Virus record (IMG/VR): IMGVR_UViG_3300048690_000084 | Coordinates: 1 to 62,922 of that record | Origin: a virus | Lineage: Duplodnaviria > Caudoviricetes | Reading direction: 5' to 3' (one strand) | Length of the DNA stretch: 62,922 bases | Shown: in pieces, positions 911 to 47,083 of the stretch | How the letters are laid out: every line of letters begins with the position of its first letter | Numbering within the stretch: position 1 is the stretch's first letter | The notes under the pieces: model-generated | Seen by the model: the letters and a program-made list of their open reading frames with translations, nothing else | Told to the model about the DNA's origin: nothing | Database searches by the model: none | Made by a program: the position numbers and the translations under genes

Positions 911-1503
911 GTGTTCTTCTCCTTGAGTTTGGCTTCGATGGCACGGGCAAAGTGATAAAGATTTGTGCCATGTGCTTTTAAATCCTCCATGATTGCGCCT
1001 TGCTCTGTAGCTGTCAGCCTAACCCACGCACTCCGTGCTGATTGCCGCTTACGCTCCTCCGGATCTGGTGCTGCCAGTGGCGTAGCCACGTTGGGTGGGG
1101 TGGTGTAGAGAGGTTCGACCTCGCATCCATCCATATCGCCAAGTTCATCATCAAACGCAAGGTATTGGCAGCTTGCACCTTTGTCATAAACCAAATACGC
1201 CACAGGCTCCTGCACAGCAGGTGCTGGCTGTGCCAATACCTTGTCGCTCATTCGCTCAAACAGCTCTTCCCACTTTTTAATTTTCTCAAGATGGTACTCA
1301 AGCGTCACCGTGCCAAATTGACTTGGTTGATTTTCCGGGTCAGTGATTGCCTGTAGGAATTCACTTCCCACAGGCTCCTGCACAGGTGCTGCAAGGGCTT
1401 GCTTGATGGCGGTTATGGCTTTGTTGTGCTCGTAATCTGGCTTTATTTGCGTTGCCAAGTATTCCAACGCCTCCAGCGCCAGCTTCAATGCTTCGTCTTT
1501 CAT
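907..1503 (-). CDS. Modular 'QEPV-repeat' phage protein
   Basis: Start MKDEALK after GGGAGAA; two PVQEPV/AVQEPV motifs; ends EAKLKEKNT. Confidence 0.75.
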   Translation of the reverse strand: MKDEALKLALEALEYLATQIKPDYEHNKAITAIKQALAAPVQEPVGSEFLQAITDPENQPSQFGTVTLEYHLEKIKKWEELFERMSDKVLAQPAPAVQEPVAYLVYDKGASCQYLAFDDELGDMDGCEVEPLYTTPPNVATPLAAPDPEERKRQSARSAWVRLTATEQGAIMEDLKAHGTNLYHFARAIEAKLKEKNT

Positions 1504-1949
1504 GTGTTCTCCCTTGCTTTTGCGTTCTGTTTTCGGATGGCTTCGCACTTTCTGCATAAACGCCAACCACGTTTTGTCACCCATGTGTTTTCTTCGGTAA
1601 ATTCATGATTTCTCAAACAGTGCGTAAAGTTTGATTTGCCAATCGTGCAGATGCGATTTTTCTGCGCCGCATCTCTCATGTTGTCGGTTCTGTCGCCCAA
1701 AAACAAATGGTCTGGATTGACGCAAATCCTGTTGTCGCATTTGTGAAGCACCCACAAACCATCAGGAATCGGCCCATTGGCAAGCATCCACGAGTAGCGA
1801 TGCGCTCCATGACATTTGCGGCCTTCTTCAATCAGGTGGGTAAAAAAAGCTCCGTATCCATTACCGCGAATTGCGCTTTTCCATTCCCAGCACCCGGAGT
1901 CAGTTTGCTTGTCCACCTTCTCCCAGAACCGCTGATCTATTGGCTTCAT
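1500..1949 (-). CDS. HNH homing endonuclease
   Basis: RFWEKVDK..CWEW, AHRYSW, VLHKCDNRICVNPDHLFLG..DN motifs; C-terminal Cys/His finger. Confidence 0.9.
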   Translation of the reverse strand: MKPIDQRFWEKVDKQTDSGCWEWKSAIRGNGYGAFFTHLIEEGRKCHGAHRYSWMLANGPIPDGLWVLHKCDNRICVNPDHLFLGDRTDNMRDAAQKNRICTIGKSNFTHCLRNHEFTEENTWVTKRGWRLCRKCEAIRKQNAKARENT

Positions 1950-2130
1950 TGCTCGTTGGCTTTTCACTTGAACACTCCTTAAGTTGTTCGCACATTCTAC
2001 CACGCTCATCAGCACGAACAAGGGCTTCAAAGGCTTTGATTGAGTCGTTGCCAACAATTGCAAACTGTTTTGGCTGTTGGTGAATATGGATTGCACCAGC
2101 CTCACGGGCCATGTCTATCGTGTCTCTCAT
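1900..2130 (-). CDS. Hypothetical protein (MRDTIDMAREAG...)
   Basis: Start overlaps helicase stop; 3' end runs into HNH gene. Confidence 0.55.
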   Translation of the reverse strand: MRDTIDMAREAGAIHIHQQPKQFAIVGNDSIKAFEALVRADERGRMCEQLKECSSEKPTSNEANRSAVLGEGGQAN

Positions 2131-3596
2131 TTCTTTCCTTTCACATAACGAATAAGCGCAGCCTTCACCGCCTTGTTGAACTCCACGCTCGGCGCTTTCG
2201 GCACATCGTATAAACCTTTGGGCCACACGCCAAACTTGTCTTTGTAGGTGTGCGCCGCTCTGCCTGTGCTCCAGCCGTGGTTCTTCACCATGTACTGGCA
2301 CATGCTGTACCAGTCTTGCTTGCTCTCTCTGGATGCAGCAGCCTTCAACTCTTCCATCTCACCGGGTACAGACTCCACCATGCTGCGCTTGTCTCGCGTG
2401 TAGCCGCAGTGCAGGCAGGTATCCGATCCGCTGGCCCACAGATGGCCGCACTTGGGACACTTGGCCGCCTCTTTCTCTTTCTCGGTCTTTTCCTTCTTGG
2501 CCTTCTCGCGTGCGTCATCCAGCTCATGCACGCCGTTGTTGTAAATCTCTTCCCAATCTTCTTGGAAGCGAATGTAGTTGCCAGAATGATCAAGCCACAC
2601 GGCAAACTCCTTGCCCGCACAGCCGCGCATCACTCGGCCCATCTGTTGCACATGGGATGACAGTGACTTGCTGAATGGGCGAGCGCTCACGCCAATCATC
2701 ACGTCAGGCACATCAAAGCCCTTGGTCAAAATGTCCGTGGCGATCAGGCCATGAATCTCCGTGTCTGGCTTGCTGAAATCTTCAATGACCTCCCGCTTGA
2801 AATCGCTCTCGTCTTCGTAGGAGATGCTGATAAAGTTGTAGCCCTGCTCAGCAAACTTCTTTGACAGGTCGGTGCCATGCGCCACGCCAGAACAGAAGAT
2901 GATGGTCTTGCGAGGCTTACCAAATATCTCGTGCGTCTTTTTGATCCACTCGGACACAATGTCTCCGGTGATCTGCATGCCGCGCTTGGTCGTCTCGCCT
3001 TGATTCCACTCCCCGGTGTTTAGCTTCGTGACGCCGGTCATGTCGATCTCTTTGGCAACGAACACGCGCAAGGGACAAAGAACCTTCTGATCAACCAGCT
3101 CTTTGGTTGTGACCGTGCTCACCACATGTTCGTACACGTTGCCAAGACCCTTTGTGAAGGGTGATGCAGACAGGCCGATGACTTTGATTTCTGGATTATT
3201 CTTGATGAACTCCACCGTCTGCTTGCGCATGGCGTGAGCTTCGTCAACGATCATCAAAGTCAGGCCGGGGAATGAGCCGCGCTTCTCCAGTGTCTGTGCA
3301 CTGCACACTTGAATGTGCTCGTATGGCCGATACCGCCAGTGACCAGACTGAAGCACGCCATGCTCGATGTTGTACTTCTCCAGACGCTGGCTTGTCTGAT
3401 CGCACAAGATGATCCGGTCCAAGATCATGGCCGCACGATTACCCTTCTTGTGGGTTGCATCCAACAGCGCGATTGCCATCTCAGTCTTGCCAGCACCCGT
3501 TGGGGCATACAGCATCTGAGCTTTGTACCCAGCAGCAAACCCCTTCCTCAAACCATCCAGCGAACCGGATTGGTACTCTCGTAATTCCAACGCCAT
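2127..3596 (-). CDS. Superfamily 2 (DEAH) helicase with C-terminal Zn ribbon
   Basis: LREYQ, APTGAGKT, VDEAH, SASP, KGFDVPD, QQMGRVMR, CPKC..CLHC. Confidence 0.95.
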   Translation of the reverse strand: MALELREYQSGSLDGLRKGFAAGYKAQMLYAPTGAGKTEMAIALLDATHKKGNRAAMILDRIILCDQTSQRLEKYNIEHGVLQSGHWRYRPYEHIQVCSAQTLEKRGSFPGLTLMIVDEAHAMRKQTVEFIKNNPEIKVIGLSASPFTKGLGNVYEHVVSTVTTKELVDQKVLCPLRVFVAKEIDMTGVTKLNTGEWNQGETTKRGMQITGDIVSEWIKKTHEIFGKPRKTIIFCSGVAHGTDLSKKFAEQGYNFISISYEDESDFKREVIEDFSKPDTEIHGLIATDILTKGFDVPDVMIGVSARPFSKSLSSHVQQMGRVMRGCAGKEFAVWLDHSGNYIRFQEDWEEIYNNGVHELDDAREKAKKEKTEKEKEAAKCPKCGHLWASGSDTCLHCGYTRDKRSMVESVPGEMEELKAAASRESKQDWYSMCQYMVKNHGWSTGRAAHTYKDKFGVWPKGLYDVPKAPSVEFNKAVKAALIRYVKGKK

Positions 3597-3643
3597 TTGT
3601 TTCTCCAACTGCCAGCACACATGCCCGCTGGCTTGGGCAATGA

Positions 3644-4462
3644 TCACTCTGCCTTCTTGAGTTGACGCTGCATCGACAGCACTTGCTTCTTGAGCTGGCT
3701 GTTCTCTGACTGGTACTGATCACGGCTTTGCTTGACTGCGGCCAGCTCAATCTTTGTTACGCGCAAGTCCTCACGCAGCTCTTCAATCAGGGCTGTGGCA
3801 GCCTGTTTGTCTTCTGGTGAGGCATCCATGCCAGCAACTGCAACGCGGGCCTTCAGCTCCTCATTCTCGGCCAGCAGCATGTCGATGGCCTCTTGGTTGT
3901 GGTCTTCCTTCTCTGCTTGAGGCGGGATGACCCCTGGACCTTTAAGCTCTGGCTCTTTGACTGGACGACCGGGCGCCTTGGCCTTGACCGCGACATTGCC
4001 ATCCTTTGTCTTGTACTTCACAACAGCAGGGCCACCGCTGTCACGCAAGCTGGCCACGAAAGTTGGTGACACGCCGCATCGACGAGCGATCTCGCTGTTG
4101 CTCCAATCACTCCACTCGAAGTCATCCAGCAGCGTCATCACGGACTTGCGCTTGTCTGCATAGGTCCGGCGCATGCCATGGTTTGCATTCACACCAGCAG
4201 AGTGCAGGATTGCGTCACGCAGGGTGCCCTGAAGCACATCACACTGAATGCTGACCTTCTCGGCACGCTTGTGTGCAAGCACGCGATGGTAGCCGTCCGT
4301 CAGGTAATAGTTGATGCCGTCAAAGTACACCAGCACTGGCGGAAACTCTGCGCCGTCTTTGATTGCATCCACGTAATCGGCAACAGTGTCTTCGCTGATT
4401 TCTGTTCTCGACTGCAGGCGCTCGTCCATCACGAGTGCGCCAATGTTCATCACTTTATTCAT
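3644..4462 (-). CDS. ParB-like N-terminal domain protein with HTH and coiled coil
   Basis: FPPVLV..LTDGYHRV motif; SNSEIARRCGVSPTFV HTH. Confidence 0.8.
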   Translation of the reverse strand: MNKVMNIGALVMDERLQSRTEISEDTVADYVDAIKDGAEFPPVLVYFDGINYYLTDGYHRVLAHKRAEKVSIQCDVLQGTLRDAILHSAGVNANHGMRRTYADKRKSVMTLLDDFEWSDWSNSEIARRCGVSPTFVASLRDSGGPAVVKYKTKDGNVAVKAKAPGRPVKEPELKGPGVIPPQAEKEDHNQEAIDMLLAENEELKARVAVAGMDASPEDKQAATALIEELREDLRVTKIELAAVKQSRDQYQSENSQLKKQVLSMQRQLKKAE

Positions 4463-4608
4463 TTGCCATCCTTCATTGTCCAGCCCAGCAGAAACCATCT
4501 CCAGTACGTCTGGATGTTGGTGTTGTCGTACTTCTCGCCATCCCAACCCGGGGCTGCTTTGCCCTTGGTCATGAGGATCGCCTCAAACTGTTTTCGCGCT
4601 TCGTTCAT
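4459..4608 (-). CDS. Small hypothetical protein
   Basis: 49-aa ORF translated by hand (MNEARKQFE...), ATGA overlaps. Confidence 0.55.
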   Translation of the reverse strand: MNEARKQFEAILMTKGKAAPGWDGEKYDNTNIQTYWRWFLLGWTMKDGK

Positions 4609-4793
4609 TTCTTTTCCTTGTAGATTTTGAGGTGACTTGGTATCTCACCTTTGGTTGATCGGCCCCTTGTTGCCGACATCGATTTCCGCAAAGAATCATC
4701 GTTCGCCATCACGCTTTCCTTCGGGGTCTTCCAGCTCGTGAATGCGTTGCTCTGACTCTTGACTATCCGTGTTCCCGGCCAATGAATTTCCAT
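4605..4793 (-). CDS. Hypothetical protein
   Basis: MEIHWPGTRIVKS..., coupled to neighbour. Confidence 0.55.
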   Translation of the reverse strand: MEIHWPGTRIVKSQSNAFTSWKTPKESVMANDDSLRKSMSATRGRSTKGEIPSHLKIYKEKK

Positions 4794-4905
4794 CTTTAAT
4801 GTCCCTTGAAAAAATGTGATCCCATCGCTGGGCGTACTGTTGATCGCTGATGGCCATTGGCCTGCGACCCGATCCCTTTCCACCATCTCCGTGCATTGCT
4901 CTCTC

Positions 4906-5364
4906 CTATAGAAAATTAATCTTTGGCGACCGACTTCTGATCATGTCCGTCACCTTCTTTATGTGCTTCTCGTACACGCTTCGGGCCACCGATGTTCTTT
5001 GCAGCTCATGCCACTCAATGATGTCTTGGAAGCTCTGCAATCCAAGCGCCGTGGAGCCCATCTTTCCGATCCGATCGAACCTTTCTTTGGCATCCAGCAA
5101 GTGCATCTCTGCGATCTTGCAAGGGACCATCACTTCGGGGCCGATGTTTGCGGAGGCCATGCTTTCTGCCAGCCTGACCACCGCATTTATGTTGTTCCAG
5201 TCCTGCTTCTGAGCGGTTCCATTCCTGAATGCCTCCATGCTGCCGCGCTCTTTTTTGCGCAAGATTTCCAAGCTCTCCTCGTCTGTAATTGATGCGCCCG
5301 ACATCGCGTGCGTGATCGGGTTGATGCTCGTATCCCAGATTTTTCTTCGTGTTTGTTTTCGCAT
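4906..5364 (-). CDS. Hypothetical protein
   Basis: MRKQTRRKIW..., directly downstream of a leftward promoter-like sequence. Confidence 0.7.
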   Translation of the reverse strand: MRKQTRRKIWDTSINPITHAMSGASITDEESLEILRKKERGSMEAFRNGTAQKQDWNNINAVVRLAESMASANIGPEVMVPCKIAEMHLLDAKERFDRIGKMGSTALGLQSFQDIIEWHELQRTSVARSVYEKHIKKVTDMIRSRSPKINFL

Positions 5365-5371
5365 GGACTTG

Positions 5372-5446
5372 ATGTTACACGACTTTGCAGATTTCTGCAA
5401 TAAGCTGAAAAAAAATGTTGATTGGTGTTGATAACTGCATTAGACT
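5372..5446. promoter_or_regulatory. Divergent sigma70-like promoters
   Basis: Plus: TTGATT(5418)-N17-TAGACT(5441); minus: TTGCAG-N17-TAACAT (5400-5372). Confidence 0.55.
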
Positions 5447-5455
5447 ACACCCAAG

Positions 5456-5476
5456 GAACTTCCACCGTGGAAGTTC
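5456..5476. promoter_or_regulatory. Perfect dyad GAACTTCCAC-C-GTGGAAGTTC, putative operator
   Basis: Just downstream of the -10 box; the same 19-bp core recurs at 17395-17413. Confidence 0.6.
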
Positions 5477-5493
5477 TCCACAGGAGAAAACAC

Positions 5494-5832
5494 ATGACAG
5501 CAACACGGTTCGCGCCCGTGCACAACATCTTTACGGGTCAAGATGTTATCGAGCTTGTACCCATTCCAGCAGCACCGGCAAAGGGCACCAAAGGAACAAC
5601 ACTGCACGATGACAAGTTCGACAAGCTTGCCAAATTTGACCAAGCCTTGAAGGTGCCCGAGTACCAGTTTGGCGGCATGAGGAAAGCACTGCAACGCTAC
5701 CTTGACAACAAGGGCCTGCGCGGCACAGTATCCATGCGCCAAAAAAAAGATCACAAGACCAAGTCATACACGATCTGGCTTGTTAATGAGCCGCCACAGG
5801 TTGTGATACCACGCAAAGGAGAAAAGAAATGA
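5494..5832 (+). CDS. Hypothetical protein
   Basis: AGGAG RBS, ATG 5494. Confidence 0.75.
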   Translation: MTATRFAPVHNIFTGQDVIELVPIPAAPAKGTKGTTLHDDKFDKLAKFDQALKVPEYQFGGMRKALQRYLDNKGLRGTVSMRQKKDHKTKSYTIWLVNEPPQVVIPRKGEKK

Positions 5833-6092
5833 ATACAGAAGAAGATGAGTTCAACCGCATCGAGCGGGAGGCGGCCATGCGAACGGCATCGGGGCCAACG
5901 GGAATTGAGGCCATGGTCTGTGCCGACATCGCAAAGCGCCAGAGATTCGGCATGAACAAGTACGGCATCAGCGTGCAGGACAACCCTCTGGCCTTGCGTG
6001 AATGGTTGAACCACGCTTATGAAGAAGCCATGGACTTCGCGGTCTATCTGCGCCGAGCAATTGAAGAACTGGACAAGCAGGGCGGCAAATGA
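5829..6092 (+). CDS. Conserved phage protein, possibly all-alpha NTP pyrophosphatase-like
   Basis: KYG..WLNHAYEEAMDFAVYL (EExxD) pattern. Confidence 0.55.
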   Translation: MNTEEDEFNRIEREAAMRTASGPTGIEAMVCADIAKRQRFGMNKYGISVQDNPLALREWLNHAYEEAMDFAVYLRRAIEELDKQGGK

Positions 6093-6277
6093 AAATATCA
6101 ACCACGGCATGGGCCATCAAGCTGCGCGGCCGGAGCTTCTACAAAATGTCCACCGGCGGCGCAGTCACGCTTACAACCAAGCAAGATGCAGTCATCTATG
6201 CCGAGAACATCACACGAACCACGGGCATAAAGGCCGAAGCAGTCCGCGTCAAAGTACGCATAGAGGAGACGACATGA
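6089..6277 (+). CDS. Hypothetical protein
   Basis: Coupled ORF. Confidence 0.6.
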   Translation: MKISTTAWAIKLRGRSFYKMSTGGAVTLTTKQDAVIYAENITRTTGIKAEAVRVKVRIEETT

Positions 6278-6576
6278 GAGGCATAACAAAGCCAGACTGG
6301 GTTGGGCTTCGTGCCCTATATCTGTTGCTTGCGTCCGATACGAGTGCAGCACTGTCGCCGGAAGTCCAGCGCATCATTCGCTACTACCGGGAAAAATACA
6401 GCACGGAAATCTTTTATCCGGCCATGGCGAAAATTGCCAGAGACAACGCATGGCGCGGAACATTCAGCGACCCGCAAGTGGCCTTTGCTCGAAAACTTGA
6501 CAAGTCCATCCACGTCACCCAAAGAGACGAAGAATTTTCAGAAGCAATCCAAGACATCACCAAGGAGCAATCATGA
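6274..6576 (+). CDS. Hypothetical protein
   Basis: GAGGAG RBS, ATGA overlap. Confidence 0.65.
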   Translation: MRGITKPDWVGLRALYLLLASDTSAALSPEVQRIIRYYREKYSTEIFYPAMAKIARDNAWRGTFSDPQVAFARKLDKSIHVTQRDEEFSEAIQDITKEQS

Positions 6577-6764
6577 TCGACGTATACCCAACCCGCATAG
6601 AGGCCGTAGACGAGGACCAGAACGTCCTGTTCATCCTAAATTTGGAAGATGGCGGCTGCTGCACCATGCACATCAAAAGCCCACTCCTTCTTGACCAGTC
6701 CAACCTAGAAAAAGTTCTGACCGCCGTGCGCCGAGGCGTGCAGATGCTTGGACTGGAGGATTGA
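6573..6764 (+). CDS. Hypothetical protein
   Basis: AAGGAG RBS, coupled. Confidence 0.6.
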   Translation: MIDVYPTRIEAVDEDQNVLFILNLEDGGCCTMHIKSPLLLDQSNLEKVLTAVRRGVQMLGLED

Positions 6765-7480: not shown

Positions 7481-7494
7481 TGCGGGTTTTTTTA
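7471..7494 (+). terminator. Intrinsic terminator
   Basis: GCCCGC-CTAGT-GCGGGT followed by a T tract. Confidence 0.75.
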
Positions 7495-7519
7495 TAACCA
7501 AAATTTTGTCAAATCAAAA

Positions 7520-8305: not shown

Positions 8306-8380
8306 TGGTGCCCCCGGTCTGGATTGAACAGACGACCTCCCGCTTACAAGGCGGATGCTCTACCACTGAGCTACAAGGGC
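8306..8380 (-). tRNA. tRNA-Thr(TGT)
   Basis: Cloverleaf, anticodon loop CTTGTAA, GTTCAATCC T-arm, encoded CCA. Confidence 0.93.
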
Positions 8381-8456
8381 TGGCTCCCCGACGTGGGCTC
8401 GAACCACGGACATCAGCATTAACAGTGCTGCGCTCTACCAACTGAGCTATCGAGGA
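8381..8456 (-). tRNA. tRNA-Asn(GTT)
   Basis: Cloverleaf, loop CTGTTAA, GGTTCGAGCCC, encoded CCA. Confidence 0.95.
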
Positions 8457-8461
8457 ATATG

Positions 8462-8548
8462 TGGTGGGGATTACTGGAGTCGAACCAATTTGTCTTTTGG
8501 ACACCGGATTTACAGTCCGGCGCAACACGCCATCGTTGCCGAATCCCC
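8462..8548 (-). tRNA. tRNA-Tyr(GTA)
   Basis: Acceptor GGGGATT/AATCCCC, loop CTGTAAA, long variable arm, CCA. Confidence 0.9.
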
Positions 8549-8584
8549 GTTGGGATCAGTAACGATTTCGGTAATTGGTTGTTG

Positions 8585-8660
8585 TGGTCTGTGTGACAGG
8601 GATCGAACCTGCGACCTCACGCTCCCAAAGCGCGTGCTCTACCAGCTGAGCTACACACAG
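8585..8660 (-). tRNA. tRNA-Pro(TGG)
   Basis: Cloverleaf, loop TTTGGGA, GGTTCGATCCC, CCA. Confidence 0.93.
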
Positions 8661-14983: not shown

Positions 14984-15188
14984 TGGCTTGCAGGCACTGG
15001 TGGCCAAGCAGGAGCCAGTGTCCATTCAAGACCTCACCATGCAGGACTTCTTTGCGGCGTTCGCGCTGCAGGGCCTGCTGGCCTACTACGGTGACCGTGC
15101 CGTTGTTGAGAGTGACGACGGCATCACCAGCATCCACGCGGCAGCCTTCGACCACGCAGATGAAATGCTTCAGCGGAGGGTGATATGA
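14958..15188 (+). CDS. Hypothetical protein (LRDYFAA-like family)
   Basis: LTMQDFFAAFALQGLLA...ADEML. Confidence 0.7.
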   Translation: MATRKPKADGLQALVAKQEPVSIQDLTMQDFFAAFALQGLLAYYGDRAVVESDDGITSIHAAAFDHADEMLQRRVI

Positions 15189-15247
15189 GCGACACAAACA
15201 CAGGTGGGCCAGCGTTGACAAACCACAAGCAAAGCAATACACTGTAA
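15185..15247 (+). pseudogene. Orphaned 5' fragment MSDTNTGGPA of a gene split by an insertion
   Basis: ATGA-coupled start; reading interrupted by a promoter beginning at 15215. Confidence 0.6.
15215..15243 (+). promoter_or_regulatory. Near-consensus sigma70 promoter of the inserted endonuclease gene
   Basis: TTGACA-N17-TACACT, then AAGGAG RBS and ATG 15271. Confidence 0.8.
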
Positions 15248-15270
15248 TCATTCCAACAAAAGGAGTTGAT

Positions 15271-15813
15271 ATGAAGTGTTCTCGATGCGAGTGTGATGCA
15301 ACCATAAAACAAGGCAACCAGCACCTGTGCGATATGCACTACAGGATTGGCCAAATGAGGGTGGCTGCAAAAAGAAACGGCAAGGTGGTTCCAGCCCATG
15401 AACAGCTTGAAGAGCTGATCAAGAAAGGTCTTGGGTGCCCTGATTGCGGAGTTCAAATGAATTGGCGATCAAAAGACGGAAGGGCCACGGTAGCCAGTTT
15501 GCAGCACTACAGAAGTGGTCGGATCGGGATCGTTTGCTTGTCCTGCAATGCAAGACATGCCGCAATGGATGGGGATAGTTATTGCGAAATGCCGAAAGAC
15601 CACAAGCGCTGCCCTTCTTGTTTGAAGACAAAACCAGCACTTGAGTTTTCTGCGGACAACGGCAGGTCTGGGACTCTCAAGAGAAAAAGTATTTGCAAAC
15701 AGTGCTCAAACGAAAAAGTCAACCAATGGAAAGAAAGAAACAGAGATGAATACAACGCATACCAACGAGCCTACAGAGCCAAACGCAAAGAGCATGGAGG
15801 GCCGATTACTTGA
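15271..15813 (+). CDS. HNH/endonuclease VII-like Zn-finger endonuclease
   Basis: CPDC...SLQH...CLSCN core; RCPSC..K...EF...CKQC Zn finger. Confidence 0.6.
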   Translation: MKCSRCECDATIKQGNQHLCDMHYRIGQMRVAAKRNGKVVPAHEQLEELIKKGLGCPDCGVQMNWRSKDGRATVASLQHYRSGRIGIVCLSCNARHAAMDGDSYCEMPKDHKRCPSCLKTKPALEFSADNGRSGTLKRKSICKQCSNEKVNQWKERNRDEYNAYQRAYRAKRKEHGGPIT

Positions 15814-15952
15814 AACGATTAGTCTGCGAGACTACTTTGCGGCAAAGGCGATGGCATCCGTGATCGCCCGAGGTGACGACACAAATCGCCCCGGCATGGC
15901 CGAGTGGTCTTACGCAATGGCAGACGCCATGCTGAAAGCGAGGGAGGCATGA
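15794..15952 (+). CDS. Hypothetical protein (SLRDYFAAKAM family), start uncertain (15747 or 15794)
   Basis: SLRDYFAAKAM...YAMADAMLKARE. Confidence 0.65.
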   Translation: MEGRLLETISLRDYFAAKAMASVIARGDDTNRPGMAEWSYAMADAMLKAREA

Positions 15953-16290
15953 TCGAACTGGACGACTGGTCGGCGCACATGATGCGTGCCGAGATTCAAC
16001 TCAAGGCCATCGAGAAGCATTTGCTCAACAAGGACTACGACAAAATCCAAGCTCACGCTACGTCGGCCAAGCACTACATCGACAAGACGATGGCGTGGGT
16101 GGCCCGCCAAGGCTCCAGCAAGGGCGTGGATGTGGTTGAAATCCTTGAGGGCAACGTGCACATGCTGAACGACTCGAACCCACTCAAATCGCTTTTAATC
16201 GCCTCCATTCAGGAGATTGAGCAGCTCAGGGGCGAGAGGCAGTTTTGGCTGAAGTCCGGCTTCGACATCGGCAAGTCAGATCGTGAATAA
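15949..16290 (+). CDS. Hypothetical protein
   Basis: GGGAGG RBS, ATGA overlap. Confidence 0.7.
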   Translation: MIELDDWSAHMMRAEIQLKAIEKHLLNKDYDKIQAHATSAKHYIDKTMAWVARQGSSKGVDVVEILEGNVHMLNDSNPLKSLLIASIQEIEQLRGERQFWLKSGFDIGKSDRE

Positions 16291-16549
16291 CAAACTAACA
16301 CCAAGGCAACGAGAGCACATCGGGAAGGTCAAACTTTTGGCCTGCTCGGTGTGCGACAAGCCGGGACCAAGTGACGCTCACCACATTGAGCAAAAACTTC
16401 AATATTGTGTTGTGTCACTATGTCGAGACTGTCATAATAGCTTACATGGCGAAAAGCTCATCTGGAAAGTAAAGAAGATGGATGAGCTGAAAGCGCTCAA
16501 CGTAACTATTGAAAGGCTCTCAAATGGCTTTGAAGGACATGACTGGTAG
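16283..16549 (+). CDS. Ref/DUF968-like small HNH-fold nuclease
   Basis: CSVC....DAHHI....LCRDCH..LHG. Confidence 0.7.
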   Translation: MNNKLTPRQREHIGKVKLLACSVCDKPGPSDAHHIEQKLQYCVVSLCRDCHNSLHGEKLIWKVKKMDELKALNVTIERLSNGFEGHDW

Positions 16550-17279
16550 CGTATTTGGTGCGCTTACCGTGACCGGAAGGGAAAGTAATCTGCCGGACGG
16601 CACGGCAGTCTGGAGGTGTGTATGCGAGTGCGGCGAAGTTCGAGTTATACCCGGCAACTCACTTCGCGCAGGAAGAAACAAAAGCTGCGGATGCCTGTCT
16701 CCAAGATTTACATCCGAGAGGACAAAAAAGCACGGCATGTCCCTCAGTCGGGTCTATGGCATTTGGCAAGGAATGATCGCAAGGTGCTCTAATGCCTCAG
16801 TCGGAAAAACAAGAAGGCTCTATTACAACAAGGGAATCAGGGTGTGCGAAAGGTGGATGAGGTTTGAAAACTTTTTGGAAGACATGGGCACCCCAGAAAA
16901 ACACCAAAGCATTGACAGAAAGGACGGAGACAAAGATTACGAGCCGGGAAACTGCCAGTGGGCCGACAGCAAGGCTCAAGCAAACAACACATCCTCAAAT
17001 CTGATCATCACCCTGAATGGTGCCTCACTAACCGCATCAGAGTGGTCTGATAAAACAGGGATCAAGGCAAACACAATTGTCTACAGGATAAGGCGAGGCT
17101 GGAGCGCCGACCGAGCTTTGGAAAAAAATCCAATCAATGTCCGCACAAAAAGAAAAGAGGAAAGAGCTAGGCCTTGCGAGGTGTGTGGCACAGAGTTTTG
17201 CCCAAGACCCGCGCAAATAAAAGCAGGAAATGGAAGATTCTGCTCTCAAAAATGCAACGGCGAGTCCCGCAAAACATAA
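16524..17279 (+). CDS. HNH-type homing endonuclease with C-terminal Zn finger
   Basis: FG.LTV..WRCVCECG, KSCGC, W.GMIARC, GIRVCERW..FENFLEDMG, SIDR.D....EPGNC.WA. Confidence 0.85.
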   Translation: MALKDMTGSVFGALTVTGRESNLPDGTAVWRCVCECGEVRVIPGNSLRAGRNKSCGCLSPRFTSERTKKHGMSLSRVYGIWQGMIARCSNASVGKTRRLYYNKGIRVCERWMRFENFLEDMGTPEKHQSIDRKDGDKDYEPGNCQWADSKAQANNTSSNLIITLNGASLTASEWSDKTGIKANTIVYRIRRGWSADRALEKNPINVRTKRKEERARPCEVCGTEFCPRPAQIKAGNGRFCSQKCNGESRKT

Positions 17280-17376
17280 CGGAATCCACGGACAGAAGCG
17301 AATGTGGGCCATCCACAAGCTGGACGAGTTGTCCGCGCTGAACAAAACAATTGGAATATTGTTTAGCGAGAAATGA
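17272..17376 (+). pseudogene. Displaced original 3' end of the Ref-like gene
   Basis: Translates KHNGIHGQKRMWAIHKLDELSALNKTIGILFSEK*; 16/29 identical to the C-terminus of 16283..16549. Confidence 0.85.
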
Positions 17377-17391
17377 ATACATTGGTGGGGT

Positions 17392-17416
17392 CGCAACTTC
17401 CACAGTGGAAGTTGCG
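17392..17416. promoter_or_regulatory. Perfect dyad CGCAACTTCCAC-A-GTGGAAGTTGCG at the convergence of middle and late transcription
   Basis: Same 19-bp core as 5457-5475. Confidence 0.55.
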
Positions 17417-41240: not shown

Positions 41241-41242
41241 TT

Positions 41243-41794
41243 TTAATCCAATGTAGGTATGTCAGACCACGTAGTGGGGGCGCTGTCGTTAATAGTCGTC
41301 CATGTGGTGGATTGTGCCGTATTAACCGTTGCCCAGCCAGTGGTTTGACTGTCATTGATGAGTTCCCAAAGCAGTCGAGCAGTTGCTACATCCGTTATGG
41401 CGCTTCCTTCAGCTACAGCGCAAATAAACAATATGTAGGTGGACACAATGTCGGTTGCGGTAGCCGCCTCTGAAAGCGCGGCATTGAACGTGGACGCCGC
41501 TACAGTGACTGAGTCGGTGGCTACGCTGCTCTCAGCTACGATGGCGGCGAACGTGGAAGCGCTTACAACCACGGCATCCGATCCTGTCGCGGCCTCAGAA
41601 ACTGCCGCCGTAAACGCGGATGCGCTTACCGTAACGTCATCTGCTCCGGTGCTTGAATCTGCAACAGTTGAATTGAACACAACCCGAGCCAAAAACTCAT
41701 CGAGTATGGCTGCAGCCTCAACAATAGCGGAGTTGAACGTGTTCGACCCTGTGGCTGAAAAGGGAGCCGCCGCAAAAGCCGATCCGCTAAACAT
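41243..41794 (-). CDS. Structural protein
   Basis: MF...FAAAPFS start, A/S/T-rich repeats. Confidence 0.7.
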   Translation of the reverse strand: MFSGSAFAAAPFSATGSNTFNSAIVEAAAILDEFLARVVFNSTVADSSTGADDVTVSASAFTAAVSEAATGSDAVVVSASTFAAIVAESSVATDSVTVAASTFNAALSEAATATDIVSTYILFICAVAEGSAITDVATARLLWELINDSQTTGWATVNTAQSTTWTTINDSAPTTWSDIPTLD

Positions 41795-41805
41795 CCGCTA
41801 CCCCA

Positions 41806-42324
41806 TCAGGCAGCGTCAAGGCTGAATGTGTATGTGACGTTCAGCGTATCCCCAGAAACCACGGTTCGATCACCGGGAGACTGGAAGTCAGATGCCGAGA
41901 ACAGCACGCCGGATGTTCCGGTGGTCACTGAGCAAATAAATGCGCCCGCCACCACACCGCCCGAGCTGGAGATGCTGAACGAAGAGGGGTTCGAGGAGTT
42001 GGAGATTACAGATGGATCGGCCGTCGAGGCGGTTCCAAAGGTGATTGCCGGACGGTTCCCTGAGTAGTTGGTGAACTCAGTCCAGCCAGAGTGCGATGCC
42101 AAGGTGTCAGCGGCCGCAATCGTTGCGCCAGAGCCGGGGCCGGTAATTAAACCCATGTACCAAGCAGCGGTATACGCACTGCCCTTAAAGAACTGGGTGT
42201 TCATGTTCTGCAGGCCTTCGTTGACCACGAGGTTTGGCACTGCCGCTTCCCACTTCAGGTTGCCGTCTTGGTCGTGGCACTGGACCGTGAACACACCGCC
42301 AGCTTTTGCTTGTTCGTTAAACAT
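41806..42324 (-). CDS. Structural protein
   Basis: W....NLVVNEG, GDTLNVTY. Confidence 0.75.
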   Translation of the reverse strand: MFNEQAKAGGVFTVQCHDQDGNLKWEAAVPNLVVNEGLQNMNTQFFKGSAYTAAWYMGLITGPGSGATIAAADTLASHSGWTEFTNYSGNRPAITFGTASTADPSVISNSSNPSSFSISSSGGVVAGAFICSVTTGTSGVLFSASDFQSPGDRTVVSGDTLNVTYTFSLDAA

Positions 42325-42333
42325 GTTTGTTCC

Positions 42334-42750
42334 TCAAGAAATGCGGATCAGCGCACTTGTCGCTGTGTTGGCGGGCATCTGCACCGTGAAAGATGTGGTG
42401 GCTGTTTTGTCAGCGCCAAAGTCAAGTACGGCAATCGCTTTATTGCTTTTGCTGGCATTGTAAATGAGGGCACCGCGAGCAGTGAAATCAGCCGGGCTCC
42501 ACGAGGGATCGGCAAAGTCCACGTAGGCCGTTGTGCCAGAAGTCAACACCGTCACACCTGTCAGCGTCTCTCCGCCGGCCGTGTATCCAGTTCCCGACGT
42601 TTCGCCCGTTGTGCTGTACACCGTGGTGGCCGCACCCAAGTCGGCAGTAGCCAAGTACAACGCCATCTTGATGGTGTCGGTTTCGAGGTCGTGCACGCCC
42701 AGCAGGATGTCCTGCTTGAAGCTCGTGGTAAGGGTTTGGTCAAACGCCAT
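42334..42750 (-). CDS. Structural protein
   Basis: SFK..L.G.HD, GYTAGG, ARGALIYN, VLDFG.DK. Confidence 0.75.
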   Translation of the reverse strand: MAFDQTLTTSFKQDILLGVHDLETDTIKMALYLATADLGAATTVYSTTGETSGTGYTAGGETLTGVTVLTSGTTAYVDFADPSWSPADFTARGALIYNASKSNKAIAVLDFGADKTATTSFTVQMPANTATSALIRIS

Positions 42751-42751
42751 A

Positions 42752-43459
42752 TCAGCTCACCCCGTTGTTTTGCGGCAATGGTGCCATACGGTACTGGCCG
42801 TTGCGGTACGCATCGCTGCGCTCCATGCCATCACCCAGACGCTTAGCCAATGCCAGTGCTTCGTTGTACTTGGTGTTGTACAGCTGAACCATGTCGGCTT
42901 CACCCTTCATGAACGTGATTGCCTCAACCAACGAGCCATACAACAGCACGGAGTCAAAGTTGTCGCCAAGCCATGTCTGGCCAGAAGCCGCCACGCTGAT
43001 CGACTCAGGGTAGTAGTAATAGTGAAGCTCGACCGTGTACGCGGCAGCAGGGGTTGGACCCATGATGAACGACAGCTCGTTTGTGATAACGGGCGATGCG
43101 CCGCTTGTTGTCGTTGGGCCAAACAAAGCGTAGTACTTGGGCAGGCCTGTGCTCGACGGAGTGGGGTACGCCTGACGGATAAAGTTGACATCCTTGTTGA
43201 GCAGGTACTCGTACGCGCCGGTGGCGTCAACCACCGCCAAAGAGTAAACAGCCAAGAAGTCGCCGGGGGACGAGAGGTACTTGTTCCCAGTCTCAGTCAA
43301 CCCCGTGACGTTCTTGCGAAGCGAGGGGAACTGCACCGTGTTGTAGATGCGCTGCTCGGCCTGCGTGACAAACACCGGGATGTTGTCAATGAAGTCCTGA
43401 TCGAAGTTCTGCGTGTAATCGCAGATGGCAGCAGTCAACTGGGTGTAGTTCATCGCCAC
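42752..43459 (-). CDS. Head-tail adaptor / tail tubular A-like
   Basis: AEQRIY, G.PKYYA, PTP...Y.VEL.YYY.P, LLYGSL.EA. Confidence 0.7.
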   Translation of the reverse strand: MAMNYTQLTAAICDYTQNFDQDFIDNIPVFVTQAEQRIYNTVQFPSLRKNVTGLTETGNKYLSSPGDFLAVYSLAVVDATGAYEYLLNKDVNFIRQAYPTPSSTGLPKYYALFGPTTTSGASPVITNELSFIMGPTPAAAYTVELHYYYYPESISVAASGQTWLGDNFDSVLLYGSLVEAITFMKGEADMVQLYNTKYNEALALAKRLGDGMERSDAYRNGQYRMAPLPQNNGVS

Positions 43460-43460
43460 C

Positions 43461-43733
43461 TCAAGCCATTGGGCCGCGAGCCATCAGGCCCTTGGTTGCT
43501 GCGCCAGTGCCGCGAACTTTGATGCCGGATGTCTTGACGTCATTAGCACCGGGATCACCAGCACTTACACGGGGTGTGGCCGTGTATTGGGTCATCTTGT
43601 TGGCAGCCAAAGTGTTTGGGTCTTGCATGACCTTCGCACCAGTACCGGGCTTGCCGTCCATGGTGTGTGGCTTGGCATAGACACTGGCTTGGCCAACTTC
43701 TTTACCCATCAATTTTTTGCTGAAAGTAGCCAT
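43461..43733 (-). CDS. Small basic virion-region protein
   Basis: K/M/G-rich; RGTGAATKG. Confidence 0.7.
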   Translation of the reverse strand: MATFSKKLMGKEVGQASVYAKPHTMDGKPGTGAKVMQDPNTLAANKMTQYTATPRVSAGDPGANDVKTSGIKVRGTGAATKGLMARGPMA

Positions 43734-43735
43734 GA

Positions 43736-43927
43736 TTAGCCTCGCTTCTGTGCTGCAATTTTAGCCAAGCCGCGACCCATGGTCTTCATGTCGGCGTTGA
43801 GTTTTCCGCCGCCGCTTTTGCCGCCACGGCCGGACAGAGCTGCGACTGTGGGGCCGCTATCACCAAGGTTTTTGCCCTTGGTTTTGCCTTTGGACACGAT
43901 GCCGTCAGCAGATTTTGTAAAAGCCAT
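43736..43927 (-). CDS. Small basic virion-region protein
   Basis: ADGIVSKGKTKG. Confidence 0.7.
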   Translation of the reverse strand: MAFTKSADGIVSKGKTKGKNLGDSGPTVAALSGRGGKSGGGKLNADMKTMGRGLAKIAAQKRG

Positions 43928-43937
43928 GATGGACTCC

Positions 43938-44327
43938 TTAATTCGTCACTACCGTGACTGTACCAACAAAACCCTGCGCCACCAAGTTATTTGGTGTCAG
44001 CGCAGCGTCAAAAAAGCTTGAGCCGCCAACCGGTGACCAACCCCACTGAATGTCCCGACTGCCACCTCCGTTGAACCCATCAACCCCGATACCGGAAGTC
44101 ACGTATGTCGTGTCATTGCGAGGGTTGCGCAGGGCCTGTGGATCGTCCACAGGAAAGGTTCCAAGCATCAACTGAGGCTGATCCGGGTCCCAGCACTCAG
44201 AACACACCAGCAGCTCGTATTTGCGCTGCTTGATGACTTCTGTTTTGAGTGTTTTGAGCTTGAACTGCTGACCGCAGCGATCGCACATGGCAATCGCCCG
44301 CTTGCCAGAAGCAAAACGATTCGCCAT
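43938..44327 (-). CDS. Zn-finger structural-region protein
   Basis: CDRCG..VC.ECWDPDQPQ. Confidence 0.75.
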   Translation of the reverse strand: MANRFASGKRAIAMCDRCGQQFKLKTLKTEVIKQRKYELLVCSECWDPDQPQLMLGTFPVDDPQALRNPRNDTTYVTSGIGVDGFNGGGSRDIQWGWSPVGGSSFFDAALTPNNLVAQGFVGTVTVVTN

Positions 44328-45026
44328 TTAGACACCACTTCCGATGAACATCTGGCGAGGAACAAATCGAACGGCAGCTTTCTCCCGGTCTTCGGAAGAT
44401 GCAAGGTCCCAAGCTTCGTCGTACTGGGCTTTGAGAATCTGTAGGCGCTCCAAGCCACCGGGGATTTTCATCGCCAAGTAATAGGCCAGTCCAGCGATCA
44501 TGGCCGGGATAAAACGGAACGGCATGTCCATGGTGTTCACACCCTCACCAGCATTCTGGATGCGGCGCAGACGCCAGTACACCAGCGTGTAGGTCTGGGT
44601 GTTGTCTGGCACAGGCCAAACAGTGAACCGTGGCGTGTTCAGGCGCTCAATCCAAATCTGGATAGGGCGGGCCTGAGTCAGCTTGTTGGGGATCGTGGCA
44701 TACGTAGAAACACTTATGCGCGTGATGGTCAGGTCGGCTTGCGTCGATGCGCTGCCTGCGCCCGTGCGGATGACGTGCTCCATAAGGTCAACCGTGTCGG
44801 CCGGCAGCTCATATGTGGCCACGCCCGGGGTCAACACTTGCGTGCCTTGCTCGAACGTCCACATATTGATGCCTCGGTTTGCCCAGTCAGCAAACAGCAG
44901 GTTTAGTGAACGGCGAGCGGTTCGCAAGTCGTAACCAGTCCGCATCTCGGAGCCCACTCGCTCAAACGCTTCCTCGACGATTTCTGTCAAATCGACGTTA
45001 AAGTTTGCAACTCCAGATGTGGCCAT
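44328..45026 (-). CDS. Head-tail adaptor-like protein
   Basis: EEAFER.G, ARRSLNL...WANRG.N.W, GLAYYLA. Confidence 0.7.
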   Translation of the reverse strand: MATSGVANFNVDLTEIVEEAFERVGSEMRTGYDLRTARRSLNLLFADWANRGINMWTFEQGTQVLTPGVATYELPADTVDLMEHVIRTGAGSASTQADLTITRISVSTYATIPNKLTQARPIQIWIERLNTPRFTVWPVPDNTQTYTLVYWRLRRIQNAGEGVNTMDMPFRFIPAMIAGLAYYLAMKIPGGLERLQILKAQYDEAWDLASSEDREKAAVRFVPRQMFIGSGV

Positions 45027-45029
45027 GAT

Positions 45030-45278
45030 TTACTTCTTCGCGGTTTTGGCTGAGTTCAAGAACGCTTGCTTAGTTGGCGCACCTTTGCTACCAACGCTTC
45101 GCATTTTCTCTCCAGAGCCTTCAGCAATTCTTTTGCGCTTTGCATTAATGTTTGCATACAGTCCTACTTTCCCGCCATCGGCGTACTGCGTGAAGTCGGT
45201 GTCATCCCGGCGAGCTTTACGCACGCCCTTGGGCATCTTCGATGAGGCGATGGCACCCATGCCACGGCTGGCCATCAT
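45030..45278 (-). CDS. Small basic protein
   Basis: SRGMGAI, YADGG, GLYANI.AKRKRI. Confidence 0.7.
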   Translation of the reverse strand: MMASRGMGAIASSKMPKGVRKARRDDTDFTQYADGGKVGLYANINAKRKRIAEGSGEKMRSVGSKGAPTKQAFLNSAKTAKK

Positions 45279-45279
45279 G

Positions 45280-45723
45280 TCAGCACACCTTGCCGCGAGT
45301 TTTACCGCGCTGGGCGATGCCGTCAGCACGACGAGAGGCCGACACTGCGCCGCCTTTTTTGAATGTCTCAGGGGAGGCTTCGGTGTTTTCTTCGCTGTTT
45401 AACCGCGCACCGCGCATCGCACCTGTAGCTTCAGCCGCGCTGTCGAGCATATTACGGACACGACGCGATTCACCGCTCTTGGCCATAGTCTCGTCATCAG
45501 GCTTGCGGGCCATGGATGTGCGAGTTGAACCCTGAACCATTGTTGGAGCGCGTGGCGAACGATCGTCACGAGACTTGTACTCACGCGAAACTTTGCCGCC
45601 CACGGAGGGCTGCTCGGTTTGGGAGGCTAGTTCCGTGGTGAACTTCTTGCCGTTGAACTCAAACGTTTTATCGCCAGCAGCGCGTGCTTCGCGGAATGCT
45701 TTGCCGAAACCAGATGTAGCCAT
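45280..45723 (-). CDS. Small basic protein
   Basis: F..AF..AR..G.KTF.FNGK.FTT; FKKGG; RADGIAQRGKTRG. Confidence 0.7.
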   Translation of the reverse strand: MATSGFGKAFREARAAGDKTFEFNGKKFTTELASQTEQPSVGGKVSREYKSRDDRSPRAPTMVQGSTRTSMARKPDDETMAKSGESRRVRNMLDSAAEATGAMRGARLNSEENTEASPETFKKGGAVSASRRADGIAQRGKTRGKVC

Positions 45724-45733
45724 AATTTTCTCC

Positions 45734-45970
45734 TTAGCAGGCTTTGCCGCCACGGGCCATCTTGATCATGGTGCCTTTGGTCTTGCCTTTGACAGCGATA
45801 CCGTCGGGCTTTGAGCTTGTCTTAACTGCGCCCATCTTGGTCATGCCGCCAGCCTTCAAGCCTGCGTGAGCCTTGGAGGCGGGTTTGGCAGCGTGCTTGG
45901 CCAACGCGTCAGCGCCGCCCTTTTTCTTTTCCATCATTGCGGCAAAGCCAGCGTTCATTTTTGTAGCCAT
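45734..45970 (-). CDS. Small basic protein
   Basis: LKAGG, DGIAVKGKTKG, MARGG. Confidence 0.7.
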   Translation of the reverse strand: MATKMNAGFAAMMEKKKGGADALAKHAAKPASKAHAGLKAGGMTKMGAVKTSSKPDGIAVKGKTKGTMIKMARGGKAC

Positions 45971-46013
45971 GGTGTACCACCTTTAAAAATGCGGGTTTAA
46001 CCGCGATTGAATT

Positions 46014-46253
46014 TTATGCGTCCGTTTTGTTGCGCAGATTGTCAATCTTGCGCTCAATTCGGTCAAACCTATCCAGCAACTGAGCCATGTCCGCCCGGAA
46101 TTCTGTGCGAGTGATGTGATCACGCGCCACTTCTTCCCGGGTGCGGTTCAGCAAAATGCTCAGCCGATCCAGCTCGTCGAATTTACTCTTGAGCAGAAAA
46201 CCCATCACAGCCACGATGGCGCTGAGCGCTACATTCCAAAGCATCATTTCCAT
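46014..46253 (-). CDS. Small TM + coiled-coil protein
   Basis: N-terminal TM; LLNRTREE.AR. Confidence 0.7.
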   Translation of the reverse strand: MEMMLWNVALSAIVAVMGFLLKSKFDELDRLSILLNRTREEVARDHITRTEFRADMAQLLDRFDRIERKIDNLRNKTDA

Positions 46254-46256
46254 GAT

Positions 46257-46517
46257 TCAGCACTTCCATCGCGCCAGTGACGCGGCTTTACGAGTGGGCT
46301 TGCCCTTCTCGTCTTTCATTGGACCCGGCATACCACTCATGCGTGCGCAGAAAGAGTCCTTGCGCTTGCCGCCTTCTGGCTGCGGGGCTTTAAGGCTGCT
46401 ACCTGTTTTGGCATTGTATGCTTTTCGACCGGCCGCAGTCATACCAGCACCTTCTTTTGTGCTGAGATAGTTGCGGCCCTTGCCTTTGGTAGTTTTTGCA
46501 ATTTGGTTTGCCATCAA
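46257..46517 (-). CDS. Small basic conserved phage protein (DUF6321-like)
   Basis: GAGMT..GR..YN..TGS.LKAP...R..SFCARM.G...RWKC. Confidence 0.75.
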   Translation of the reverse strand: MMANQIAKTTKGKGRNYLSTKEGAGMTAAGRKAYNAKTGSSLKAPQPEGGKRKDSFCARMSGMPGPMKDEKGKPTRKAASLARWKC

Positions 46518-47083
46518 AGCACCTCAAACCGGTTGTGTTTTGAAATATTCTCTTTGCCACGCAACACCCGCATATTGCTGGGGACGTGCAAACCAGACAC
46601 TAAATCACCTTGAAGCGGGATTACGTGATCGACATGCCAAGGCTCTTGGTTTTCACGGGTACGCATTGCCGCAACGGAGTGCAGGCACCTAATCTTTAGC
46701 TTGTCAAACTCGGTAAGCCATGCAGGGGTTCGTTGCAGCTTTATGGCCCTGCGGTTTGCAGCGCTTGCAGAAGCAATTTCGGGGCGTAGCTTTTGGCGGT
46801 TCAGCTGCCGTTTTTTGGCCTGCTCGTGATTTGCGTAGTAGTACTCAAGCGCTTGGGCGCGTCTTGTTTCTGCGTTGCGCTGGTATTCCGCCGAATAGTC
46901 CCGCTGCATATCAGAAGTTTTACGTTTGTGCTCTCGGCTACAAAACCTTGCGTTTGACTTTTTGTGGTCAATGTCCACGCCACACAACTCGCAGGCACGA
47001 CCTTTGGCGGTCAAACCAGCCCCCTTTGAGGCGGGCAGCTTTTCACCACGGCCGACAGCAAGGGAGGGGGTCTTCTTAGCCAT
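46514..47083 (-). CDS. HNH homing endonuclease fused to the captured 5' end of the neighbouring gene family
   Basis: RTPAWL, HVDHVIPLQG..VSGLHVP.N..L...EN..K.N; N-terminal KGAGLTAKGRA. Confidence 0.88.
   Translation of the reverse strand: MAKKTPSLAVGRGEKLPASKGAGLTAKGRACELCGVDIDHKKSNARFCSREHKRKTSDMQRDYSAEYQRNAETRRAQALEYYYANHEQAKKRQLNRQKLRPEIASASAANRRAIKLQRTPAWLTEFDKLKIRCLHSVAAMRTRENQEPWHVDHVIPLQGDLVSGLHVPSNMRVLRGKENISKHNRFEVL

Follow-up and report, generated by a model that had tools for sequence, protein, structure and literature searches.

The stretch of DNA analysed here (the window) is a whole IMG/VR virus record, IMGVR_UViG_3300048690_000084, of 62,922 bases with a completeness of 99% by CheckV. 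The initial annotation of this DNA listed four HNH-like genes, here called HNH1 to HNH4 (coordinates in Table 1), that abut fragments of small genes. All four are present, and comparison with related viruses bore this description out: each lies within a small open reading frame (ORF), with its junction in a motif that is conserved among nuclease-free alleles. At the HNH2, HNH3 and HNH4 loci, relatives carry the uninterrupted gene at the same position. We regard the four genes as probable homing-endonuclease cassettes that sit inside protein-coding genes without an intron or intein and whose cleavage activity is putative.

Since megablast searches with two stretches of the window as queries found no near-identical relative among cultured phages, and since the capsid protein shared, in protein searches, 72.5% identity with Planktothrix and Synechococcus phages and about 65% with the Pelagibacter phages HTVC027P and HTVC023P, the source is an uncultured aquatic tailed phage. 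Relatives were taken from IMG/VR as loci (labelled L and a number), of which 382 were fetched, giving 383 sequences with the window. These were anchored on the large virion protein adjoining HNH2 and HNH3 (39 loci), on the capsid gene adjoining HNH4 (80 loci), on the helicase adjoining HNH1 (80 loci) and, for the further loci, on each of the four nucleases. Local alignment scores of duplicate pairs were compared with those of 2000 shuffles.

The four HNH-like proteins

HNH1 matched Pfam HNH_3 above the cut-off (49-52 bits vs 24.8), and phrog_826 spans the protein up to its C-terminus. HNH3 matched phrog_374, annotated 'HNH endonuclease' (3e-56), and had no Pfam match. HNH4, a protein of 189 amino acids (aa), matched phrog_1035 (5e-13) and phrog_8660 (2e-8), families annotated as endonuclease VII and HNH, and scored 14.8 bits against Pfam HNH, under the cut-off of 21.4; residues D152, H153, N170, N179 and N184 are invariant in 29 sequences of its family. 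PHROG matches of HNH2 were weak (about 1e-6) and covered the C-terminal part only. All seven members of the HNH2 family keep a CxxC...H...CxxCNxxH pattern, with C56, C59, H79, C89, C92, N93 and H96 invariant (n = 7). In our own reading, the invariant residues of HNH4 and HNH2 are predicted to be catalytic His/Asn residues and a metal-binding Cys pattern. Profile-profile comparison of the HNH2 and HNH4 families returned only a helical repeat match (probability 50%), and profiles of GIY-YIG and endonuclease VII found no match elsewhere in the genome. The four nuclease genes are likely to be unrelated cassettes that arrived independently.

HNH4 and the DUF6321 gene

In nuclease-free relatives, the HNH4 site is occupied by a single uninterrupted DUF6321 gene of about 84 codons. 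Codons 1-30 of the HNH4 ORF have 85-100% aa identity to the starts of these uninterrupted alleles; after codon 30 the intact alleles go on with KYN and the window goes on with CELCG, a zinc-finger motif of the nuclease. The insertion amounts to 587 nucleotides (nt; 46993-46407) in the window vs 15 nt in L065, and downstream of it the identity to L065 is back at 88% nt in the body of the DUF6321 gene, the 3' part of which is 92% nt identical to L185. The restored DUF6321 gene, whose ATG overlaps the HNH4 stop (TGATG), is a chimera in which codons 1-36 are diverged and cassette-derived and the remainder is resident-like. Its version of the target motif GAGLTAKGRA/KYN (the slash marks the junction) reads GAGMTAAGRKAYN, with codons 27, 30 and 31, around the junction, altered. 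The initial annotation had reported duplications at 16.4/17.3 kb (the HNH3 locus) and at 46.5/47.0 kb, and both held, as the local score of neither pair was reached by any of the 2000 shuffles. The pair at HNH4 (47083-46994 vs 46514-46407) lies below tblastx detection within the window, and it is the relatives that settle its homology.

A survey of the window and 160 loci (161 sequences) found 26 with the intact motif, 8 with the stub-nuclease junction and 9 with the altered allele. Intact and altered motif were together in no locus, and 8/8 junction loci had the altered DUF6321 allele. Junction and altered site were always 542 nt apart in the six in-frame carriers with distinct records. The remaining altered allele, that of L165, follows a free-standing HNH4 homologue that has its own start, a different upstream gene and no stub, plausibly an organisation of the donor type. 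The stub of L128 is not in frame with the nuclease, and therefore the 30 stub residues are not needed by the enzyme; the join also differs from that of the other carriers while falling at the same codon, which suggests a second insertion event there.

Among L124, L125 and L126, the nuclease and the new DUF6321 5' end are 97-99% nt identical, with stubs at 71-87% nt, DUF6321 3' parts at 78-81% and flanks at 31-88%; the HNH4 cassette has spread into differing backgrounds. The separate comparison of gene halves that the initial annotation had called for gave discordant nearest neighbours at this locus. Those of the stubs and of the gene 3' parts are nuclease-free alleles (the window stub is 89% nt identical to L185 and L065, and that of L124 is 97% identical to L134), and the new 5' ends are nearest only to those of other carriers. 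Among 15 near-complete related records, a close HNH4 homologue was present in 3, and 4 others matched HNH4 only through its 30 N-terminal codons, as expected for an uninterrupted DUF6321 gene.

As a separate observation, the DUF6321 gene of L068 and L077 is fused to an upstream domain in one longer ORF, with the target motif intact.

HNH2 and the TGGPAFP-type gene

The stub and new start at HNH2 form a pair beyond those in the initial annotation. Between the same two neighbours, relatives carry a small gene starting MSNTNTGGPAFP, which is uninterrupted in 8 nuclease-free loci. Its first ten codons (15185-15214) remain in the window at the syntenic position, where the stub is identical to L004 at 31 of 32 nt and its ATG overlaps the upstream gene stop, as in the relatives. 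After GCGTT the stub joins cassette DNA, which opens with a promoter-like TTGACA-17-TACACT followed by a ribosome-binding site. A promoter scan gave this one site vs a mean of 1.4 in shuffled sequence, and thus the predicted promoter takes its weight only from conservation: both hexamers are kept in 6/6 carriers read, with a spacer that varies.

The new start, at 15746, reads MNTTHTNEPTEP, the displaced start in a diverged form that has lost the GGPAF motif. It was found in 7/7 HNH2 carriers. The restored small gene is homologous to the intact alleles (0/2000 shuffles); the stub and new start make a weak pair within the window (85/2000 shuffles) that is clear only against the relatives. The stub was seen in five of the seven carriers (the window and L283-L286) and not clearly in L282 and L287. 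Identity among carriers begins ~60 nt before the ATG of HNH2 and drops after about +545.

In L282, L284 and L286, another gene body, with a predicted membrane helix, follows the start that the HNH2 cassette carries; this portable start seems to serve two different downstream genes.

HNH3 and the 88-aa gene

In 13 nuclease-free loci, the HNH3 site holds a single gene of ~90 codons with a conserved stretch, ...NGIHGQKRMW..., two-thirds along. In the DNA of the window, the HNH3 stop codon takes its T from the cassette and its AA from the resident gene. The orphan 3' end that follows has 72-93% aa identity to the uninterrupted alleles of these 13 loci, the value of 93% being that to L009. The duplicate pair (16433-16552 vs 17275-17394) is 47.5% identical over 40 aa. 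The conserved stretch of the complete 88-aa gene upstream is changed and two codons shorter, and this altered motif occurs, among the 383 sequences, in the window and L202 only. These two sequences share ~97% nt identity from roughly 16270 to 17288, with ~82% in the flanks; the shared island comprises the whole 88-aa gene and HNH3, and the L202 orphan is of a different subtype.

The initial annotation had read this locus as a replacement of the 3' end. The upstream gene, however, is foreign throughout, with 48% aa identity to L009-type alleles (61% to L010) vs 75-82% for the neighbouring gene. Judged by these identities, the foreign part is the entire 88-aa gene and not its 3' end alone. With two carriers, the left limit of the island is less certain. 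L202 has HNH3 and an intact HNH2 site, and a close HNH3 homologue was found in none of the 15 near-complete related records.

A weak tblastn match had raised the possibility that the old 88-aa gene lies nearly whole under the 3' end of L202 HNH3; this was rejected, as the reading frames show homology from the stop codon only. The 88-aa target (with homologues in L003-L041) itself has a CxxC...HH...CxxCH pattern and scores 11.1 bits against Pfam HNH, which is sub-threshold, and HNH3 may be a homing nuclease that targets a small HNH-like gene.

HNH1 and the ADERE-family gene

Upstream of HNH1 lies a small modular-family gene whose ATG overlaps the helicase stop. The junction with HNH1 follows ADER of a conserved ADEREACA motif, of which 15 intact occurrences were found in 14 loci, and it is common to six of the eight HNH1 carriers, whose upstream parts differ. 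Identity between the window and L288 is 95% in the 60 nt preceding the HNH1 ATG and 52% farther upstream, and it falls from 90% to 35% at the HNH1 stop, with unrelated genes beyond. The 80 helicase-anchored loci are not syntenic downstream of the helicase, and no true empty HNH1 site in the same position was found among them; the target family was read from copies elsewhere in these loci. A duplicate and a displaced 3' end are both absent at this locus. We considered, and dropped, a fused orphan 3' end as the source of the HNH1 C-terminus, as phrog_826 reaches the end of the protein and the tail is without 3'-end homology.

Across the loci, nuclease-free relatives do not keep the duplicated fragments; they have a single uninterrupted gene in 26 (DUF6321), 13 (88-aa) and 8 (TGGPAFP-type) loci. 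The orphans match these uninterrupted alleles, at 89-97% nt to the nearest of them for HNH4, 93% aa to L009 for HNH3 and 31/32 nt to L004 for HNH2. The proposal in the initial annotation that the cargo restores the interrupted gene stands for HNH2, HNH3 and HNH4 and is not supported for HNH1, which shows no homologous replacement. Its two geometries both occur, with the 5' end replaced at HNH4 and HNH2 and the 3' end at HNH3.

Table 1. Positions of the HNH genes, the interrupted and restored genes and the cassettes in the window.
Feature	Position	Strand	Remark
HNH1 ORF	1500-1949	-	
HNH1 cassette: 33-codon tail overlapping HNH1	1500-2000	-	compared with L288; junction read from DNA
MAREAG...ADERE family small gene, resident 5' part	2001-2130	-	cut at conserved ADERE motif
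TGGPAFP-type small gene, orphan 5' end (10 codons)	15185-15216	+	frame open to 15247
HNH2 cassette: promoter-like site (15215-15243), ribosome-binding site, HNH2 ORF, new gene start	15217-15816	+	carrier identity
HNH2 ORF	15271-15813	+	
Restored small gene, first 22 codons in another frame of HNH2 3' end	15746-15952	+	phrog_2201, 5.6e-14
88-aa CxxC/HH gene, foreign allele class, conserved site altered (16430-16465)	16283-16549	+	travels with HNH3
HNH3 ORF	16524-17279	+	start overlaps 88-aa gene end; stop spans junction 17277/17278
Resident 88-aa gene, orphan 3' end (32 codons + stop)	17278-17376	+	matches uninterrupted alleles
Restored chimeric DUF6321 gene	46257-46514	-	Pfam DUF6321, 1.5e-21
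HNH4 cassette, about 587 nt: nuclease body + new diverged DUF6321 5' end	46407-46993	-	compared with L065
HNH4 ORF, 189 aa	46514-47083	-	PHROG matches
Resident DUF6321 gene, orphan 5' end (30 codons)	46994-47083	-	now in-frame start of HNH4 ORF

Other features of the window

Apart from repeats in tail-fibre, tRNA and small-protein sequences, a filtered self-tblastx of the window returned the HNH3 duplicate and a glutaredoxin duplicate and no others. The glutaredoxin duplicate is a 55-nt direct repeat on the minus strand (371-423 and 878-930) that holds the end of an upstream ORF, a ribosome-binding site and 11 codons from the start of the glutaredoxin gene (170-403, minus strand; a match to Pfam Glutaredoxin). 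Within these codons 4 changes, all of them synonymous, set the copies apart, and the homology of the orphan copy ends where the CPxC active site begins, at its first Cys. The repeats enclose an ORF of 125 aa (400-777, minus strand) for which neither Pfam nor PHROG gave a match and the 382 fetched loci no homologue; L306 has the glutaredoxin gene directly after the upstream gene. Consecutive genes on the minus strand at 907-2130 and 400-777 end in EKNT or ENT and a stop, because the upstream frame runs through the ribosome-binding site and the ATGA stop/start overlap of the gene that follows. Such a reusable junction sequence could act as a recombination joint.

At the two ends of the record, 1-244 and 62679-62922 repeat each other directly at about 90% identity, over a stretch that takes in the 3' end of a glutaredoxin-like gene. 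Since the copies differ, they are not a simple circular overlap; they may be a true, diverged terminal repeat or come from mixed strains in the assembly. ARAGORN found four clustered tRNA genes (8306-8660, minus strand; Thr-TGT, Asn-GTT, Tyr-GTA and Pro-TGG), three of which Rfam also detects. A palindrome at 17392-17416 separates the plus-strand gene block from a convergent 2064-aa gene, where both end, and is probably a two-way terminator.

A proposed model of homing without splicing

The insertion sites, the cassette limits, the linkage of altered allele and nuclease, and the spread into different backgrounds can be read directly from the alignments. The cassettes also fit the operons in which they lie: HNH4 uses the resident start codon and the restored gene starts at its stop; a promoter-like site of its own precedes HNH2, the 3' end of which also encodes the new gene start in a second frame; and HNH3 and HNH1 overlap the upstream ORF. 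Their presence is patchy among relatives, with empty sites, as for free-standing homing endonuclease genes. We propose that, in a mixed infection, the nuclease would cut the conserved motif of a nuclease-free allele, and that the double-strand break at the junction motif would be repaired with the carrier genome as template. For one side of the repair, the anchor would be the orphan stub with its near-identity to the end of the recipient gene; for the other side, it would lie in the gene body or at the junction to the next gene. The unit copied would be the nuclease together with the diverged version of the displaced gene end, which would restore a complete gene and, by altering the motif, keep the carrier from being cut again. 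The recipient's own gene end would become the new stub at each transfer, which would explain why stubs are intact and resemble local nuclease-free alleles. That the altered end may remove the cut site, as the initial annotation supposed, is suggested by an association between sequences.

Ordinary mosaicism would offer another account, in which rare illegitimate or short-homology recombination left the stubs and chimeras and the HNH genes are passengers. It would suit the 55-nt duplicated junction, which with its 11 glutaredoxin codons flanks a 125-aa ORF devoid of a nuclease signature, and the gene junctions with reusable coupling sequences, where upstream ORFs end in EKNT and a stop across the next start. 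However, all four HNH genes lie within ORFs and the cassette limits are the ends of the nuclease ORFs; near-identical cassettes sit at the same codon in different backgrounds; nuclease and altered motif are strictly linked; and the junctions fall at the most conserved motifs of the targets. We therefore hold mosaicism to be quite unlikely. Classical intronless homing with a distant cut, like that of the T4 Seg and Mob enzymes, would make the stub an old illegitimate scar, attribute the spread to co-conversion and leave the change of motif incidental. The identity islands are such as co-conversion would give, and at HNH3 the entire upstream gene travels along. Such homing is nevertheless unlikely, because in several backgrounds the left limits of the islands lie within a few bases of the junction, the altered residues flank it directly (DUF6321 codons 27, 30 and 31), and the differing out-of-frame join of L128 suggests a second event at that codon.

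That self-splicing introns or inteins hold the nucleases, so that the genes are repaired as RNA or protein, would accord with HNH4 being in frame with the original first 30 codons of the DUF6321 gene. Yet HNH4 has a stop, and the gene downstream has its own start and a complete DUF6321 domain. At gathering scores, Rfam found no group I or II intron or other family in the whole window except three tRNAs; at E<=1 it found no intron family around the four loci; and the Pfam scans detected no intein or Hint domain. These scans agree with the initial annotation, which had seen no intron or intein, and make splicing extremely improbable; insertion of the HNH genes within ORFs without splicing is supported.

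Several points tell against homing by cassettes with replacement gene ends. We infer cleavage, the position of the cut, immunity and the role of the stub as homology arm from sequence comparison. At HNH1, the cassette tail has no detectable homology to normal 3' ends (1635/2000 shuffles match), and the target gene has been cut short or remodelled rather than demonstrably restored. HNH3 has only two carriers, the window and L202, and since the whole 88-aa gene is foreign as well, a plain module swap fits as well there. HNH2 is the least certain of the four as a nuclease, and a beta-beta-alpha-metal fold is putative for it: it had no Pfam match in the window scans; PDB sequence searches with HNH2, HNH3 and HNH4 gave no usable match; and its AlphaFold model has a mean predicted local distance difference test (pLDDT) score of 63.7, with 43-50 exactly across the motif. 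The right limit of its cassette is soft, and the body of the restored small gene is only 32-47% aa identical to the available relatives. Sampling is biased in the loci fetched by way of the nucleases. Furthermore, the glutaredoxin repeat has the HNH4-like 5' geometry beside an ORF that is not a recognisable nuclease, and therefore stubs can arise without one adjoining; the 125-aa ORF may be a partner that was lost or goes unrecognised, or else stubs are also a product of plain recombination.

If homing by such cassettes is correct, phage homing endonucleases require no intergenic gap and no self-splicing host element, and a spare resistant gene end would allow them to colonise the conserved core of any small gene. 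Small conserved phage genes would then evolve as nuclease-driven chimeras, and this would account for some of the chimeric alleles, short orphan ORFs and overlapping frames by which phage annotation and pangenomes are confused. Nuclease targets would be predictable from the sequence alone, as the motif at the edge of the stub, and the cassettes would provide compact natural sets of nuclease, target and immune allele for testing. The presence of four unrelated cassettes in one 63-kb genome suggests that the design is common in this phage group.

Comparison with known systems

The genes of T4-type free-standing homing endonucleases such as SegF and MobE lie between genes and cut a neighbouring gene. 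Friedrich et al. in 2007 are said to have described the nrdA gene of Aeromonas phage Aeh1 as split by a free-standing mobE gene without splicing, with two pieces that work together. Unlike that gene, a complete gene is rebuilt at the window cassettes. The accessible part of one account of T4-type intronless homing shares with our cassettes intron-free phage nuclease genes that are patchy among relatives and spread with flanking markers, and describes no stub with a replacement end (PMC12724721). More widely, the phage literature outside subscription journals and supplements, so far as its accessible parts extend, covers gene interruption and intronless homing and not replacement-end cassettes (PMC10448857, PMC8351571, PMC12724721). 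We lean towards the view that these phage HNH homing genes belong to a common, undescribed class that is intragenic and splice-free, that carries an immune replacement gene end, also in a 5' geometry where the nuclease uses the start codon of the host gene or supplies a promoter and holds the new gene start beside or within its own 3' end, and that renews its stub at each transfer as a homology arm.

The same homing model has been published for the yeast WHO elements at the aldolase gene FBA1 (Coughlan et al., 2020; PMC7282813). In the available portion of that paper, as in our cassettes, a nuclease gene has a full-length chimeric target gene on one side and a displaced fragment of that gene on the other, the nuclease moves together with a gene end that confers resistance, the fragment is the proposed homology arm, and the two gene halves have discordant histories (PMC7282813). 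In the window, a complete chimeric gene and a displaced fragment flank HNH3 (3' end); HNH4 and HNH2 show the mirror image of this layout (5' end), and HNH1 does not have it. Unlike the phage cassettes, the WHO elements are described there as having an intein-related nuclease, as nuclear and meiotic, and as replacing the 3' end only, whereas HNH4 and HNH2 replace the 5' end and HNH4 takes over the start codon (PMC7282813).

In fungal mitochondria, mobile endonuclease ORFs (mORFs) likewise form 'gene hybrids', among them Allomyces atp6 and Glomus atp6, atp9, cox2 and nad3 (PMC3630166), and C-terminal duplications of cob and atp6 occur with homing endonuclease genes (PMC6279837). In the accessible text of both papers, a foreign C-terminus and an endonuclease ORF are inserted with the native C-terminus downstream, and the native piece is nearer to relatives than the inserted one (PMC3630166, PMC6279837). 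So too in the phage, the displaced fragments resemble element-free native alleles more than the replacement ends do. The mORFs differ in being organellar, in encoding LAGLIDADG or GIY-YIG enzymes and in having, in those texts, the C-terminal geometry only (PMC3630166, PMC6279837). The 5' geometry, the take-over of a start codon and the start in an overlapping frame are features of the phage cassettes that are absent from the parts of the WHO and mORF accounts available (PMC7282813, PMC3630166, PMC6279837). Since the phage enzymes are of HNH type, and not intein-like, LAGLIDADG or GIY-YIG, the phage cassettes are therefore analogues of the WHO elements and mORFs rather than members of these groups.

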